The notes under the pieces are model-generated. The model searched no databases and was not told the DNA's origin. It was given only the letters and a program-made list of their open reading frames with translations. From assembly GCA_017405765.1 (NCBI GenBank), contig JAFQZS010000005.1:25042-89041 (forward strand): DNA of 64,000 nucleotides. Reading direction: 5' to 3'. Within the stretch, counting starts at the first letter, position 1. Each line of letters starts with the position of its first letter. The translations under genes were made by a program, and so were the position numbers. This document shows positions 34,457-53,430 of the stretch, piece by piece. The DNA is from Clostridia bacterium (GTDB taxonomy: Bacteria; Bacillota; Clostridia; Oscillospirales; RGIG577).

Positions 34457-37400
34457 ATGTCGCTTAAAAATATACTTGATAAAACAGGCGAATACAAAGA
34501 GGCGCTTTCCCTTATAAAAAAAGGGAGCGTAAGCGCCGTAGCCTTAAACGGATTGTCACAGGTGCATAAGGCGCATTTGTGCGCCTTTTTTTATAAGAAC
34601 ACGAAAAAAAATCTACTTGTGATCGTGCCTGACGCCATAGATGCGCGCGCATTGGCCGCCGATATTGAGGCCTTTTTGGGCGAGGAGCCGCTTATGTTTT
34701 TGTCGCGCTCACTCTTGTTTGAAGACGCGCTCTCTCGATCGTTCACAGACGAGTACGAGCGTATAAGCTCGCTTTCTGTGATGAACGAGGGAAAGAGCAT
34801 AGTTATTGCCGATGCGCCCGCGCTTATGCAGCGATTGCCCGCCCCCGCAGATTTTAAAAGGATGTGCCGCTCGTTTCATGTGGGGAATGAATATGATATC
34901 GACGAGATAGTAACATATCTTTTTGAGGCGGGCTACGAATATGCCGACGCAGTTGAGGGACGCGGCCAGTATTCGCGACGCGGATCGATAATAGATATTT
35001 TCCCGCCTGCGTTCGACTGTCCCGTAAGGCTTGACTTTTTTGATGAGACGCTTGATTCGCTCTCTACATTCGATCCGATAGGTCAAAGGCGAATCGACGA
35101 GATAAAAGAGGCGCACATAACGCCTGCGCGGGAGGTCTTTTTGCCAAAGCCTGCAAGAGACAAGCTCATAAAAAAACTTACGTCAATGTCTCATAAGGCC
35201 GATGCACAGGGCGATGAAAAGTTTTCCTCGCGCTTGTCTGACGAGGCGGAGCGTCTTAAATCGGCAATGCGCACCGTTGCGCTCGACAAGTATCTGCCTC
35301 TGTTTTCGGGCGCGTCGCTTTTCGATTATCTTGACGATGCGGTTGTTGCCGTATCGGAGTATAAGGCCGTAAAGGGCGTGTGTGAGCGTTATGAAACCGA
35401 GACGGCCGAGGATATAGCGCGCGCCGAGGAGGAGCACGCGATAGGTAAAAATACAAATAATATACTTTGCGGTTTTTATGATATTCATGCGCAAATGATA
35501 AAGCGGCCGATAATACATATGGAGTCGCTGGCGCACAATTCCTACGACCACAAGATAGGACGCGAGTTTGACGTTTCGGCATCTGTCATGCCCGCGTTTA
35601 AGTCGGAAGAGGGGCTTTCGGACGATATAAAATACTATAAGCGGCTGGGTTATGCCCAGATAATAACGGTCAAGGATGAGGCGCACGCCAGAGCGCTTAT
35701 CGACCGTCTTTATGAGTACGACGTAGCGGCCTCGTATGAGGAGTCTCCGAAGCCTGCACCGGGCAAGGCAGTAGTGACGTCCGGTACGCTTTCGACGGGA
35801 TTTATATATAAAGGCGCCTTTTTATGCGTATATGTGCAAAGCTCGGCCACGAAGCCGCGCCGCCGCACACGCGCGCCGCAGTCAAAAGATTACGATCCCA
35901 AGGCGCGCCTTCATTCGTTCACCGATCTTAGGGAAGGCGATTACGTAGTCCATCAGAATTACGGCATAGGTCAGTTTGTAGGCATTGAGCGCATGGAGGC
36001 GCACGGCGTACAAAAGGATTATCTGAAGATCGTATATGCCGGAAGCGAGGTACTCTACGTTCAGTGCGACAGGCTCGACATGATATCTAAATATATCGCG
36101 CCTTCGGGCAACGGGAAGGTGCGGCTCGGAAAGATGAGCACGGCGGAGTTTTCAAAGACGAAGGCGCGCGTTCGCGCCGCGCTTGAAACGCTGGCAGATG
36201 AGCTCATAAAGCTTTACCGCGCGCGGCAGACGGCTAAGGGGCATGCCTTTTCGCCCGATTCGGAATTGAGCCGCGACTTTGATATGAAATTCGAATATGA
36301 GGAAACGCGCGATCAGCTGAGGGCGATAGACGAGATAAAAGCCGATATGGAAAAGCCCGTGCCTATGGACAGACTTCTTTGCGGCGACGTGGGTTTCGGC
36401 AAGACAGAGGTGGCGCTTAGGGCCGTATTCAAGTGTGTGCTCGAGGGCAGGCAGGCGGCGATACTCGTGCCGACAACGATACTCGCAAGCCAGCATTATG
36501 CGACAGTTGTAAAGCGTTTTGACGGCTATCCCGTAAGCTGCGAGGTATTATCACGCTTTCGCACGGCGGCTCAGCTTAAAGAGTCAGTCGCGCGCATAGC
36601 CGACGGCCGTGCCGATATCGTTATTGGAACGCACAGGCTTTTGTCGCAGGATATTAAGTTTAAGGATCTCGGTCTTTTGGTAGTTGACGAGGAGCAGCGC
36701 TTTGGCGTTATGCATAAAGAGCGCTTAAAGGAGTTTGCGCTCGGCGTGGACGTGCTCACGCTTTCGGCAACGCCCATACCGCGCACTCTCAATATGGCGC
36801 TCTCGAACGTGCGCGACATGTCGGTCATCGAGACTCCGCCCCAAGACAGAATGCCCGTGACGACTTACGTTATCGAGGAGGACGACAGAGTTATTGCAGA
36901 CGCGATAAGGCGCGAGCTTTCGCGCGGCGGACAGGTATACTTCCTTCACAACCGCACCGAAGACATAGAGAGCGCCGCCGTGCGTATTGAGACGCTGGTG
37001 CCGGAAGCGCGCGTTGCCACGGCGCATGGACGCATGACGGAGCTTGCGCTTTCACGCATAATGAGCGACTTTATAGGCGGCGAGGCCGATGTGCTGGTCT
37101 GCACGACGATAATCGAAACGGGCATCGACATACCTAATGTAAACACACTGATCATAGAGAACGCCGACTATCTGGGGCTTGCCCAGCTTCATCAGATACG
37201 CGGGCGCGTGGGGCGTTCCTCGCGACGCGCCTACGCCTATTTTATGTATAAGCGCGGTAAAGTCGTATCCGAGGACGCGCAGAAGCGGCTTTCCGCGATA
37301 CGCGAGTTCACACAGTTCGGCGCGGGCTTTAAGCTTGCGATGCGCGACCTTGAGATAAGGGGCGCGGGCAATATGCTGGGCGTAAGCCAGCACGGCCATA

Positions 37401-41247: not shown

Positions 41248-41444
41248 GGTTTATGAGACTCCGTAGTTTTACGCTTCGACATTTTTTCGGCGCATATGCT
41301 TAAAAAAGACCGTAAAGCGGCTCTATATACTTCATTGTATCAGAATTTGTCATACAGAGCAAATGAAAAAGAAATTTGCCGTGTTGCTTTTTTCGGAGAA
41401 TATGGGTAATATTAAATTACAGACTATGTTGCGAGGTGGATTTT

Positions 41445-48847: not shown

Positions 48848-49828
48848 ATGAAAAGAATTTTGCTGTTTATTACGTTTATTTGGATGGTGTTACTTCTTTT
48901 ACCGCCGATTTTGTGCAGAATTACGCAAGACGCTCCCTCTCGGGCGGAGAATATTTCGGGTGATGAAAGAATAATTATAAGTCTTATGCACACGGATACC
49001 GGCGAGCTCGAGGATATAAGCTTAAGGGATTATTTAACGGGCGTCGTTATGGCGGAGATGCCTGCTTCATTTGAGGATGATGCGCTTATGGCGCAGGCTG
49101 TAGCCGCGCGCAGCTATACTTATAATAAATATATTGAAAACAGGGCGCAGCCGGGAATATTCCCCTCGCACAACGGAGCCGACGTATGCACCGATCCCGC
49201 CCATTGCAAGGCTTATATGACGCTTTCGGACGCACGGGGAAAGTGGGGAGGAGAGTGGGAGGAGAAGTATTATGAAAAAATATGCGACGCTGTGGAGAAC
49301 ACCGACAAAGAGATACTTACATATGACGCTAAGCCGGTAAACGCCGTTTTCCACAGCGCGTCATATGGGCGCACGGAAAACTCACGCGACGTCTGGGGCG
49401 GCGACCTGCCTTATCTTAAAAGCGTGGAGTCGCCGCTGGGCGAGGCCGCCGAAGGGCAAATAACGAGAGTAGTTCTGAGTGCCGATGAATTTAAGGCACA
49501 GTTTTGCGAGGCTTATCCTGAGGCCGTTTTCGGGGACGACGCGTCCGAATGGGTGAACCATGTTGTAAGGAGCGAGGGCGGCAGTGTGCTTTCGGTAAGT
49601 ATAGGCGGCGTAACGCTCAGAGGCAACGAGGTGCGCGCCTTGTTTTCGCTTAAAAGCGCGAACTTTATCGTGACGGTGGGCGAGAATGTATGCTTTGAGG
49701 TGTATGGTTCGGGACACGGCGTAGGCATGAGCCAGTACGGCGCGAACGCGCTTGCAAAGGACGGATACGACTACCGCGCGATACTTGCGCATTATTATAC
49801 AGATACGCAAATATCGCAATGGGAGTAA
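48848..49828 (+). CDS. spoIID: Stage II sporulation protein D (lytic transglycosylase)
   Basis: N-terminal anchor, AQAVAARSYTY, AVFHSASYGRTE and GHGVGMSQYGA. SD GGAAGGAGA upstream. Confidence 0.85.
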   Translation: MKRILLFITFIWMVLLLLPPILCRITQDAPSRAENISGDERIIISLMHTDTGELEDISLRDYLTGVVMAEMPASFEDDALMAQAVAARSYTYNKYIENRAQPGIFPSHNGADVCTDPAHCKAYMTLSDARGKWGGEWEEKYYEKICDAVENTDKEILTYDAKPVNAVFHSASYGRTENSRDVWGGDLPYLKSVESPLGEAAEGQITRVVLSADEFKAQFCEAYPEAVFGDDASEWVNHVVRSEGGSVLSVSIGGVTLRGNEVRALFSLKSANFIVTVGENVCFEVYGSGHGVGMSQYGANALAKDGYDYRAILAHYYTDTQISQWE

Positions 49829-49843
49829 ATTTTTGATTTTTGC

Positions 49844-49871
49844 TTGACTTTTTAAAAACATGTGGTATCAT
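49844..49871 (+). promoter_or_regulatory. thiW promoter (extended -10)
   Basis: TTGACT (49844-49849), 16 nt, then TGgTATCAT (-10 at 49866-49871). Confidence 0.55.
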
Positions 49872-49877
49872 ATGTAT

Positions 49878-49933
49878 AAGTCATATGAATGGGGCACACC
49901 ACCGCGGGTGTGAACTTTCGTATGACTTTTTTT
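49878..49933 (+). ncRNA. Structured thiW leader: small aptamer-like hairpin embedded in an intrinsic terminator (candidate HMP-PP / thiS-motif-like riboswitch)
   Basis: Outer 10-bp stem: 49878-49887 pairs with 49919-49928 (one G-U). Internal loops are AAUGGGG and AACUUU. Apical hairpin is CACACC-ACCGCG-GGUGUG. A U7 tract spans 49927-49933. No TPP-aptamer motifs are present. Confidence 0.4.
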
Positions 49934-49972
49934 GTTAAATAAGAAAAACAATATTACTCGGAGGTATATATC

Positions 49973-50464
49973 ATGTCCAAGACGAGAAAGCTTGCGATGT
50001 CGGGCATACTTATTGCGGTGGGCGTAGTCTGCGCTCCGTTTTCGATACCTATCGGCGCGGCGCGCTGCCTTCCCGTGCAGCATATGATAAACGTGCTGGC
50101 AGCAGTTATCTTAGGCCCCGGATATGCTGTGGGAATGGCGTTTATAACTTCTCTTATACGCGTTGCCACAGGCACGGGCACACTTTTGGCGTTTCCGGGC
50201 AGCATGGTCGGCGCGCTTTGTGCGGGACTTATGTATAAATACGGGAAAAAGCTGGGCTTTGCCTTCGTGGGCGAGGTCGTCGGCACGGGAATTTTGGGCG
50301 CGATCCTCGCATATCCCGTGGCTACGCTTCTTATGGGACGTGAGGCTGCGCTTTTAGGATTTGTTGTACCCTTCCTTGTAAGCACGATAGGCGGATCGAT
50401 AATCGCAACTATAATAATTCTTGCTCTGGAAAAGACGGGGCTTATGAAGAAGCTTAAAAGCTGA
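49973..50464 (+). CDS. thiW: ECF-transporter S component ThiW (thiazole precursor uptake)
   Basis: 163 aa, 5-6 TM, with LAMSGILIAVGVVCAPFSIPIGAARCLPVQHMINVLAAVILGP. SD GGAGG at 49960-49964. Confidence 0.8.
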   Translation: MSKTRKLAMSGILIAVGVVCAPFSIPIGAARCLPVQHMINVLAAVILGPGYAVGMAFITSLIRVATGTGTLLAFPGSMVGALCAGLMYKYGKKLGFAFVGEVVGTGILGAILAYPVATLLMGREAALLGFVVPFLVSTIGGSIIATIIILALEKTGLMKKLKS

Positions 50465-50479
50465 TGATGAATAAATGCG

Positions 50480-50515
50480 CCTCCCACGGTAAATGATACC
50501 GTGGGAGGTGTTTTT
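50480..50515 (+). terminator. Intrinsic terminator after thiW; its 3' arm contains the SD of the next gene
   Basis: CCTCCCACGGT-AAATGAT-ACCGTGGGAGG followed by TGTTTTT. GGGAGG (50503-50508) lies 9 nt upstream of ATG 50518. Confidence 0.75.
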
Positions 50516-51466: not shown

Positions 51467-52441
51467 TTATTTTGCAAGTTCCTTTAAAGCTGCGAGGTAG
51501 TCTTCCTTGAAGGGATAGAGATACTTCGGGCCGGTGTCGCCGAATGCGGACGGAGCGTTGTGAGCGCCGACACGCTTTACGGGCTTCTTTAAGGACTCGA
51601 GGCAGTTCTCTGCGATAAGAGCGGAGAGGCACTGCATCATGGAGTTTCTCTCAGGAGCTTCCGTTACGAGAAGAACCTTACCGGTCTTCTTTACGGACTC
51701 GAATATCGGAGCCGTATCGAACGGAACGAGCATTACGGTGTTGAGGATCTCAACGGAGAGGCCGGTCTCCTTCTCGAACTCTTCAACAGCTGCGGTAGCG
51801 TTTACGAGTGCGGAATGATAACCGATAAGGGTGATGTCCTTACCTTCCTTCATCTTGAGAGTACCCTGCTCAAGAGTCGGAACCGGAAGATCGTCCGGTA
51901 CTTCGCCCATAAGACCTAACTGGCTCTTATCGAAGTAGAAGCATACCGGGTCGTCGTCGCGAACTGAAGCCTGCAGATAAGCCTGAACCTCTGCGGGATA
52001 AGTCGGAGCGCATACCTTAAGACCGGGAACGTTTGCGAACCAAGCCTCGTTGTTCTGGGTATGCGTGCAGCCGCTCTTACCTTTACCTATCGGGAGAAGG
52101 TAAGTAACGGGGCAGGAGAACTGACCGCCGGTGTTGTATCTCTGCTTTGCAGCGATGTTAGCGATACCCTCGTAACCGTAGGTTGCGAAGTCACCGAACA
52201 TGAACTCAACGATGGGTCTGAAGCCTGCCATTGCAGCGCCGATTGCGAAAGTGGTGTACATGGTCTCAGCAAGAGGCATGTCAAGGACTCTGTCCTTACC
52301 GTACTTCTTGTCGAAGCCTACGAAGTAACCGTATGCACTGCCTGCGGAAGCAGCAAGACCAAGAAGGATAACCTTCTCATCTGCATCAAACGACTTGGTT
52401 AAACCAGCGTTTATAGCTCTAATTAACGGAATAGTAGCCAT
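51467..52441 (-). CDS. 2-oxoacid (pyruvate/acetoin-type) dehydrogenase E1 component, beta subunit
   Basis: 324 aa with a transketolase-like Pyr domain (DMPLAETMYTTFAIGAAMAGFRPIVEFMFGDF) and a C-terminal domain. Start overlaps the E1-alpha stop (TAATG). Confidence 0.85.
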   Translation of the reverse strand: MATIPLIRAINAGLTKSFDADEKVILLGLAASAGSAYGYFVGFDKKYGKDRVLDMPLAETMYTTFAIGAAMAGFRPIVEFMFGDFATYGYEGIANIAAKQRYNTGGQFSCPVTYLLPIGKGKSGCTHTQNNEAWFANVPGLKVCAPTYPAEVQAYLQASVRDDDPVCFYFDKSQLGLMGEVPDDLPVPTLEQGTLKMKEGKDITLIGYHSALVNATAAVEEFEKETGLSVEILNTVMLVPFDTAPIFESVKKTGKVLLVTEAPERNSMMQCLSALIAENCLESLKKPVKRVGAHNAPSAFGDTGPKYLYPFKEDYLAALKELAK

Positions 52442-53430
52442 TAGATTGCACCTCCTGCTTTATTCGACCAAACAGCAGAGAAGGCAAGAGCCTGCTCTCT
52501 CGTAGGATCGGGCTGCTTGAAGCCTTCCTCGAAAGCGGCAACCATAATGTCGTCCTGCTCTTTAGCTATCTTCTGAAGACCTGCGTCGTCTATGATACCC
52601 ATTTCCTTGATAACCTTCTCGTATCTTGCAACCGGATCAAGATCAGCAAGCTTCTCTCTATACTTGGGATCTCTGTAACCCTGCGGGTCGCCGACGAAGT
52701 GACCTTCGAATCTGGTGCACTTAACTTCGAGTACGTTCGGCTGGCCCTTAGCTGCGAGGTCAATAGCCTCAATAAGAGCTTCTGCAACTGCAACGGGGTC
52801 GATACCGTCAACGGTAACGCCTCTCATGCCGCAGCCCTGTGCGCGGAGCGCAAGGTCTTCAACCGGATACTCTTTTTCAGCGGAGCTCTGCATAGCAAAG
52901 CCGTTGTTCTCGATAAAGAATACAACGGGGAGCTTGTAGATAGCAGCCACGTTCATAGCCTCGTAGGTTACGCCCTCGGAAGTAGCGCCGTCACCGTAGA
53001 TAGCGATAACAACTTCAGGATTGCCCTGTGCTCTTCTTGCCCAAGCATAACCAACTGCCCACGGCCATGCGCCGCCGAGGATACCCTGTGCGGGAAGGAA
53101 GCCAACGTCGAGCTTCATTACGTGATACTCGCCTGCGAGGCCCTTGCAGGGACCGGTCTGCTTGCAGAGCATCTCGTTGATGAAGTTCTGAAGACCCATT
53201 CTCTTGGAGTTAGCGGGCTGGTCTCTGTGAGTACCAACTGCTGCGGTCTTGTGAGGAGTGTACTTAGCAGCCATGATAAGACCTGCCTGTACGCCTTCCT
53301 GGCCATAGGGGGAGTGGATAGCACCGGCTATTTTACCGGCCTTGATGTAGTAAATTATTCTCTCACCGAAAGCTCTCGCGTATCTTAAATACTCGTAAAT
53401 TTCGATGTATTGCTCATTAGTAAAGCTCAT
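52441..53430 (-). CDS. 2-oxoacid dehydrogenase E1 component, alpha subunit (TPP-binding)
   Basis: 329 aa with TPP motif YGDGATSEG...FFIENNGFA. SD GGAGGTG upstream. Confidence 0.85.
   Translation of the reverse strand: MSFTNEQYIEIYEYLRYARAFGERIIYYIKAGKIAGAIHSPYGQEGVQAGLIMAAKYTPHKTAAVGTHRDQPANSKRMGLQNFINEMLCKQTGPCKGLAGEYHVMKLDVGFLPAQGILGGAWPWAVGYAWARRAQGNPEVVIAIYGDGATSEGVTYEAMNVAAIYKLPVVFFIENNGFAMQSSAEKEYPVEDLALRAQGCGMRGVTVDGIDPVAVAEALIEAIDLAAKGQPNVLEVKCTRFEGHFVGDPQGYRDPKYREKLADLDPVARYEKVIKEMGIIDDAGLQKIAKEQDDIMVAAFEEGFKQPDPTREQALAFSAVWSNKAGGAI

Follow-up and report, generated by a model that had tools for sequence, protein, structure and literature searches.

The HMP-PP riboswitch class (thiS motif) was described by Atilho et al. 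(2019, eLife 8:e45210; PMC6478431) as almost exclusively linked to thiS operons. In the mechanism given there, the P2 stem is common to both states of the RNA. In the OFF state the left arm and the 3′ arm pair with each other, completing the terminator. In the ON state a 5′ strand holds the left arm in P1, and HMP-PP fixes the RNA in this state during the pause of the polymerase on the U tract. The logic ascribed to the class is that the thiazole side of the pathway is turned on when the pyrimidine pyrophosphate awaits its partner (PMC6478431). The published gene table contains 12 occurrences of thiW, and the thiW leader of Clostridium lundense was used experimentally (Figure 6 of PMC6478431). 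In two of the four parts of that table, the cases with thiW as the first gene (NZ_FOOE01000023.1 and NZ_GG666044.1) sit in a tandem TPP + HMP-PP block, and the stand-alone members nearly all have thiS first (PMC6478431). Neither a solved structure of the HMP-PP aptamer nor a described P1-less variant was found in the literature searched.

The leader analyzed here precedes a thiW gene in a stretch of DNA of 64 kb, the whole of which is referred to as the window. Its likeness to the HMP-PP class extends to the core (GAA, GGGG, NNN-ACCACC, N-CG, GGU-NNN and UU-C), to P2, to a terminator-embedded layout followed by a U run, to occurrence in Firmicutes/Clostridia, and to association with the control of a thiazole-branch gene. 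The window element differs in standing alone before a monocistronic thiW, at least by comparison with those two parts of the gene table; in having a less common extra U before GGGG and AACU rather than UUUU opposite GGGG; and in having a predicted promoter that overlaps the 5′ strand of P1. With the tandem TPP + HMP-PP switch of C. lundense thiW it has in common the thiW family and an HMP-PP element placed as the promoter-distal gate. However, the window has no TPP aptamer, and its leader would therefore be a one-input ON switch and not the two-input “converse nonimplication” gate of C. lundense. Moreover, thiM (PRK09355) follows thiW in the C. lundense operon, whereas thiW stands alone in the window. 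The TPP riboswitch (RF00059) found upstream of thiW in the relatives L006 and L161 resembles the window element in its position in the orthologous SpoIID-ThiW-M23 locus and in the use of transcription termination, but it has another aptamer, another ligand and the opposite sign (TPP turns the gene off, HMP-PP turns it on).

Measured against the same two parts of the table, finding an HMP-PP switch by itself before a monocistronic thiW slightly widens the range of genes known to go with the class. The kind of element has already been described and experimentally validated; new here is a previously unannotated copy in a slightly unusual arrangement. If read correctly, the leader is a documented case, from rumen and gut Clostridia, of an HMP-PP switch that acts alone on a monocistronic gene for a thiazole importer; similar arrangements are seen in four other thiW-linked leader types (L040/L107/L109, L008, L009 and L099).

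The thiW Locus

The original prediction named the gene downstream of the leader as thiW, and Pfam agrees (PF09512, E = 6.6e-55). The gene occupies positions 49973-50464 of the plus strand, encodes 163 aa and is monocistronic. The 90%-identity protein cluster that holds the window ThiW also carries the ThiW name in its sources. The family annotation makes ThiW the substrate-binding (S) component of an ECF transporter that takes up the thiazole precursor. Its Shine-Dalgarno sequence, GGAGG (49960-49964, +), lies 8 nt ahead of the ATG. The leader had been described as running from a U tract to this sequence over about 30 nt; the order is as described, and the spacing from the U tract to GGAGG is 26 nt.

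A SpoIID-domain gene lies upstream of thiW and an M23 peptidase gene downstream. The spoIID gene ends at 49828, and a terminator scan detected no terminator between it and the leader hairpin. The same scan places a strong intrinsic terminator with a 15-bp stem, predicted to end the thiW transcript, at 50477-50511 (+). This GC-rich hairpin separates thiW from the M23 peptidase gene, and the scan calls a minus-strand terminator there too. No thiamin gene besides thiW was found among the 26 ORFs scanned in the 64-kb window, which comprised three genes around the leader, 10 ORFs at 38-59 kb, 10 ORFs of a size compatible with ThiM, ThiE, ThiD or ThiC, and three with known Pfam families. The sole other thiamin-related feature seen in the window is a TPP-dependent E1 dehydrogenase (PF00676; PF02779/PF02780), whose alpha and beta subunits are encoded at 51467-53430 on the minus strand, about 1 kb downstream of thiW and past the M23 peptidase gene.

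Match to the HMP-PP Riboswitch Class

Searches with Rfam 15 at the gathering score returned no match anywhere in the 64-kb window. Note that loci scoring 51 to 61 bits against the HMP-PP model described below (including L004, L005, L008, L009 and L040) likewise gave no Rfam match, because of which Rfam 15 seems to hold no thiS-motif family. Silence from Rfam is therefore uninformative about the HMP-PP class. Annotation based on Rfam misses this validated class, and a leader such as the present one would be labeled a bare terminator or left blank. Models were therefore built from the published alignment (the Stockholm file in the supplement of Atilho et al. 2019; PMC6478431), with the window left out.

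For the sequence profile, 97 published rows were used, and the 64-kb window was searched with nhmmer at maximum sensitivity. A single significant match was obtained, at 49877-49932 (43.6 bits, E = 9e-13); all others had E values above 1. For the covariance model, designated R1, 74 published rows were realigned and the published aptamer-state structure (P1 of 5 bp, P2 of 3+6 bp) was transferred to them. In these rows, 87.9% of the cells of the transferred structure are paired, versus 33% to 58% when the partners are slid, and the observed covariation score was reached in 0 of 500 shuffles. The pairs of P2 covary among the published sequences. R1 matched positions 49867-49933 (+) over its full length (model positions 1-68 of 68), with 53.1 bits and E = 1.8e-10, and 14 of 14 pairs are canonical. 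Either E value puts the resemblance to the published family well outside what chance would give.

The next best R1 match within the 64-kb window scores 16 bits. Matches at about that level, with E values of about 0.2, lie at 41342-41393 (+) and 34550-34592 (+); both look like terminators, with a hairpin and a U run but no GGGG/ACCACC core, and match the terminator part of the model by chance. Apart from such 16-bit matches, the R1 search found no second copy of the motif in the window.

All core nucleotides that are more than 97% conserved in the class are present at 49887-49919 (GAA, GGGG, ACCACC, GGU and UUC), and a U run follows. P2 is formed by 49895-49900 with 49907-49912 and by 49887-49889 with 49917-49919, all pairs being canonical. 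The apical part, CACACC/GGUGUG (+), encloses the loop ACCGCG (49901-49906) and is given alike by the sequence, the fold and the covariance model; the class-conserved ACCACC...GGU is carried by this stem and loop (49895-49912). Inspection against the published numbering indicates that G49892 and G49893 can pair with C49903 and C49902, respectively, in a predicted pseudoknot contact. In the alignment, G49893 corresponds to G26 of the published construct, whose function is abolished by the mutations G26C and C35G (PMC6478431). The core as a whole is almost identical to that of the published member NZ_KB976103.1 (GGGGCACACCACCU-CG-GGUGUG-AACU-UU-CGU). In addition, the gene directly downstream encodes ThiW, and the class goes with genes for making, importing or using HET-P.

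From the unique, full-length model matches and the intact core, we therefore assign the element to the known HMP-PP class: positions 49867-49933 very probably represent a stand-alone member that controls the monocistronic thiW. The original prediction had offered two readings of the hairpin, a member or variant of the HMP-PP class and a novel thiamin-precursor switch. The first is the one that the models built from the published alignment support, and the second is not needed, since the hairpin matches a known class.

Hairpin Architecture and Proposed Function

Read from 5′ to 3′, the leader consists of TTGACT, 16 nt, TGgTATCAT, ATGTAT, AAGUCAUAUG, AAU, GGGG, CACACC, ACCGCG, GGUGUG, AACU, UUC, GUAUGACUU and more U's. 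A basal stem of 10 bp, read from the sequence, is formed by 49878-49887 (AAGUCAUAUG) with 49919-49928 (CGUAUGACUU) on the plus strand. The left arm of the terminator (49878-49889, +) includes the 3′ strand of the candidate P1 (49882-49888) as well as GAA (49887-49889), a conserved element that forms the foot of P2. GGGG (49891-49894, +), the proposed pseudoknot partner of the loop C's in the class, is preceded by the extra U49890 when aligned to the published consensus. Opposite GGGG lies the variable linker AACU (49913-49916, +), which also occurs in the published members NC_015873.1 and NZ_KB976103.1 and is similar to the M3 change made in the published work. In the right arm (49917-49928, +), UUC closes P2 and GUAUGACUU pairs with 49878-49886. 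The U7 tract of the intrinsic terminator occupies 49927-49933 (+). The terminator configuration is that of the class, an extended hairpin that embeds the aptamer followed by U7 (six or more U's in the class).

The minimum-energy fold (ViennaRNA) is a nearly continuous 19-bp hairpin. The 106-nt leader was more stable than 200 of 200 dinucleotide shuffles (z = −3.8), and the hairpin at 49878-49928 alone has a folding energy of −26.5 kcal/mol. Sequence and fold agree with the original prediction on the places of the 10-bp stem, the apical hairpin and U7. They agree only in part with its description of purine/pyrimidine internal loops, because the class model pairs G49887-A49888-A49889 with U49917-U49918-C49919.

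By analogy with the published class, the leader is likely to be an ON switch in which HMP-PP prevents termination. If so, the full hairpin would form in the absence of ligand, and transcription would stop about 55 nt past the start. With the polymerase at the U tract, abundant HMP-PP would bind the newly made aptamer; the terminator would then not complete its lower stem, and thiW would be transcribed. The presumed outcome is that the thiazole moiety is imported when the pyrimidine moiety is in excess. In canonical members it is P1 that keeps the lower stem open, and the equivalent in the window would be UCAUAUG (49868-49874) with CAUAUGA (49882-49888).

Related thiW Leaders

ThiW-based scans covered 80 genome loci and 70 metagenome loci. 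Few of these have the R1 motif immediately before thiW (L004, L005, L008, L009, L040, L084, L086, L087, L099, L107 and L109). L040, L107 and L109 reach 61 bits against R1, and L009, L008 and L099 are further carriers of the motif directly upstream of thiW in other lineages. In L040/L107 and L008 the promoters are placed so that P1 is transcribed.

At 90% identity, the window ThiW falls into a single cluster, made up of 11 sequences from Clostridia MAGs; cattle and sheep duodenum are the sources of the clade's two genome hits. The cluster contains three leader types, all from close relatives: that of the window, that of L004/L084/L086/L154-160, and that of L005/L087. Protein search, cluster listing and contig look-ups revealed no further leader type in the clade. 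The core is invariant across the three types, and changes fall at the loop N position, in the linker and at one base of the lower stem. The stretch between the U tract and the Shine-Dalgarno sequence and the sequence upstream of the −35 box have diverged strongly.

Minimal HMP-PP leaders are found upstream of thiW at L009:2906-2971 and L099:288-340. In these, GGGG pairs with UCCC or CCCC and a U-rich tract follows directly; the lower stem, GAA/UUC and P1 are absent. A near-consensus promoter lies 17-21 nt before GGGG in both, and in L099 the Shine-Dalgarno sequence is about 13 nt past the hairpin. The window clade differs from these two leaders in having a long, 12-bp lower stem together with an abutting promoter, whereas L009 and L099 have no lower stem.

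Promoter Position and P1

A promoter scan placed the −35 hexamer of the predicted thiW promoter, TTGACT, at 49844-49849 (+) and an extended −10 element, TGgTATCAT, at 49863-49871 (+; hexamer TATCAT at 49866-49871), with a spacer of 16 nt and 10 of 12 matches plus TG. Transcription is predicted, from the scan and the sequence, to start at A49878 (+), which lies 7 nt past the −10 element, where the terminator stem begins. TTGAC(A/T) is invariant and in the same register in the sister leaders L004/L154 and L005. Their −10 boxes are TGtTATTAT and TGgTAATAT, the 16-nt spacer is identical, and an A lies 7 nt downstream in each; the scores are 11/12 plus TG for L154 and 10/12 plus TG for L005. The original prediction of a TTGACT-16-TGgTATCAT promoter with a start at the base of the stem (about 49878) is thus reproduced by the scan and kept in the sister leaders. 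A second candidate upstream, TTGATT-17-AAACAT (start at about 49868), was rejected as the main promoter, being weak (7/12) and absent in L004 and L005.

That earlier reading missed a clash between the placement of the promoter and the P1 anti-terminator helix of the class. The candidate 5′ strand of P1, UCAUAUG (49868-49874, +), which extends the strand assigned by the covariance model, lies in and just past the −10 box, overlapping the −10 hexamer and the 6 nt beyond it, and its transcription is doubtful. With a start at about 49878 this anti-terminator strand is not transcribed, and therefore P1 cannot form. When the R1 search was started at 49878, the score was 44.3 bits versus 53.1 bits.

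R1 assigns P1 to AUAUG (49870-49874) with CAUAU (49882-49886). Extended outward, the helix of the window has 7 bp (UCAUAUG/CAUAUGA) and a 7-nt loop (−6.0 kcal/mol). Its geometry is that of the canonical L040 (GUAC/GUAC, −2.5 kcal/mol), with a 7-nt loop directly 5′ of GAA. The potential for these 7 bp follows from a CATATG palindrome together with a TCATATG repeat. L004 and L005 have no stable P1 at this place (3/5 and 4/5 pairs, respectively; 0.0 kcal/mol), and the window-specific bases C49869 and G49874 each create a P1 pair. In all three leader types the promoter spacer also contains CAU(G/A)UG, a second candidate for the 5′ strand, with complementarity to the invariant left arm; this stretch and the two window-specific bases speak for a real P1.

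The direct repeat TCATATG has one copy at 49868-49874, within the −10/discriminator region, and a second, 13 nt further on, at 49881-49887 in the terminator's left arm. At the site of the first copy the sister leaders have only ATAT or TATAT.

We rate the chances as even that transcription starts at the foot of the hairpin and that the switch then works without P1 or works poorly. If no P1 competes with it, a 12-bp lower stem should, under the published mechanism, terminate transcription whether or not ligand is present. A canonical P1 is somewhat doubtful, and would require an upstream start or read-through from spoIID, which is without a terminator of its own. If the conflict between promoter and P1 is real, the clade would be a natural test of how much “terminator-embedded aptamer” switching needs.

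Among the alternatives to a canonical class member, the one that survives best is a P1-less variant that abuts its promoter, although we consider it unlikely. In such a variant the RNA would begin at about A49878, and HMP-PP would control read-through by a route other than strand exchange with P1; the P2/pseudoknot domain, once it has bound ligand, might for instance keep the lower stem from zipping up. The register of TTGAC(T/A)-16-TGnTAnnAT, which is kept in the window, L154/L004 and L005 though spacer and flanks diverge, speaks for this arrangement, as does the A found 7 nt past the −10 box in 3/3 leader types, and the core alone retains its 44.3 bits when the search begins at 49878. On the matter of P1 the leaders point in different directions: a stable helix is absent in L004 and L005, whereas the window itself has the 7-bp helix of −6.0 kcal/mol with canonical L040 geometry, to which both of its private bases, C49869 and G49874, contribute pairs. 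L009 and L099 have near-consensus promoters at 17-21 nt before GGGG and no P1, but their U tract directly follows the GGGG:CCC pairs, so that no P1 is needed there, in contrast to the 12-bp lower stem of the window. Note also that the start at 49878 is itself a prediction. An AAGU (49878-81)/ACUU (49914-17) helix was considered as a closing helix for a P1-less aptamer and was rejected, as it is not kept in L004 or L005. If a P1-less reading is true, HMP-PP, from its place in the P2/pseudoknot domain, would have to counteract a 12-bp lower stem and suppress termination in a way that has yet to be described, and the whole switch from promoter to terminator would span about 90 bp.

A second alternative is that the hairpin is an ordinary intrinsic terminator, for example that of spoIID, or a decayed riboswitch relic that is thiS-like by descent and no longer senses a ligand. 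The end of spoIID at 49828, with no other terminator before the hairpin, would suit the first of these, but a strong conserved promoter between spoIID and the hairpin indicates that the hairpin belongs to the thiW leader. If P1 is untranscribed the hairpin may terminate constitutively; against this, a transporter gene that is otherwise intact and conserved would be silenced by a constitutive terminator 40 nt ahead of it. The ligand pocket of the class has kept all of its nucleotides here, and the substitutions fall elsewhere. The clade is young (ThiW 93-96% identical), so that conservation of the core is weak evidence for selection. The loop and internal-loop sequences match the ligand-binding consensus at E values of about 1e-10 to 1e-12, which a plain terminator does not predict. 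We judge this alternative quite improbable, and retain assignment to the HMP-PP class.

TPP Aptamers and Exchange of the Regulator

TPP control of thiW is common, and the nearest relatives outside the clade carry TPP aptamers (L006, 60.1 bits; L161, 54.0 bits), yet it is extremely improbable that the window leader is a TPP riboswitch or a thiamin-related aptamer for another ligand such as HET-P or HMP-P, given that the window has no TPP match at the gathering score and the leader none at E ≤ 10, that CUGAGA is absent, that a leader of about 95 nt is too short for a TPP aptamer, that validated HMP-PP aptamers have the very same binding-core nucleotides, and that cells accumulating HMP-P do not activate the HMP-PP class (PMC6478431). 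At E ≤ 10, the Rfam 15 search of 49780-50020 returned no thiamin-related family, and gave four unrelated chance matches (MIR2593, FasX, Srn266 and MAT2A_B). A THI-box aptamer (CUGAGA ... ACCUGA ... pyrophosphate-sensor helix, at least 54.3 bits) was not found in the 64-kb window. As a positive control, the TPP model (RF00059) detects aptamers ahead of thiW at 9 of 20 related loci and also, at 54.0 bits, in L161. The original claim that the leader is not a TPP riboswitch therefore stands, since the same model that is silent in the window detects TPP aptamers at other thiW loci.

The next relatives, L161 and L006, have ThiW proteins 72-74% identical to that of the window and the same SpoIID-ThiW-M23 gene order, with a TPP riboswitch instead. 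In L006 it lies at L006:921-1036; in L161 it lies at L161:800-909, with a score just below the gathering score of 54.3 bits. As judged by sequence comparison, the regulator has been exchanged at an orthologous SpoIID-ThiW-M23 locus, a predicted TPP OFF-switch on one side and a predicted HMP-PP ON-switch on the other. Such an exchange is of relevance to the sharing and salvage of vitamin B1 precursors among gut anaerobes. In a rough survey by regular expression of the 450 nt upstream of thiW in 78 genome loci, a TPP-like core was found in 28, the HMP-PP core alone in five and both in none. The intergenic region of L161 is 450 nt long and contains more structured-looking sequence past the TPP terminator.
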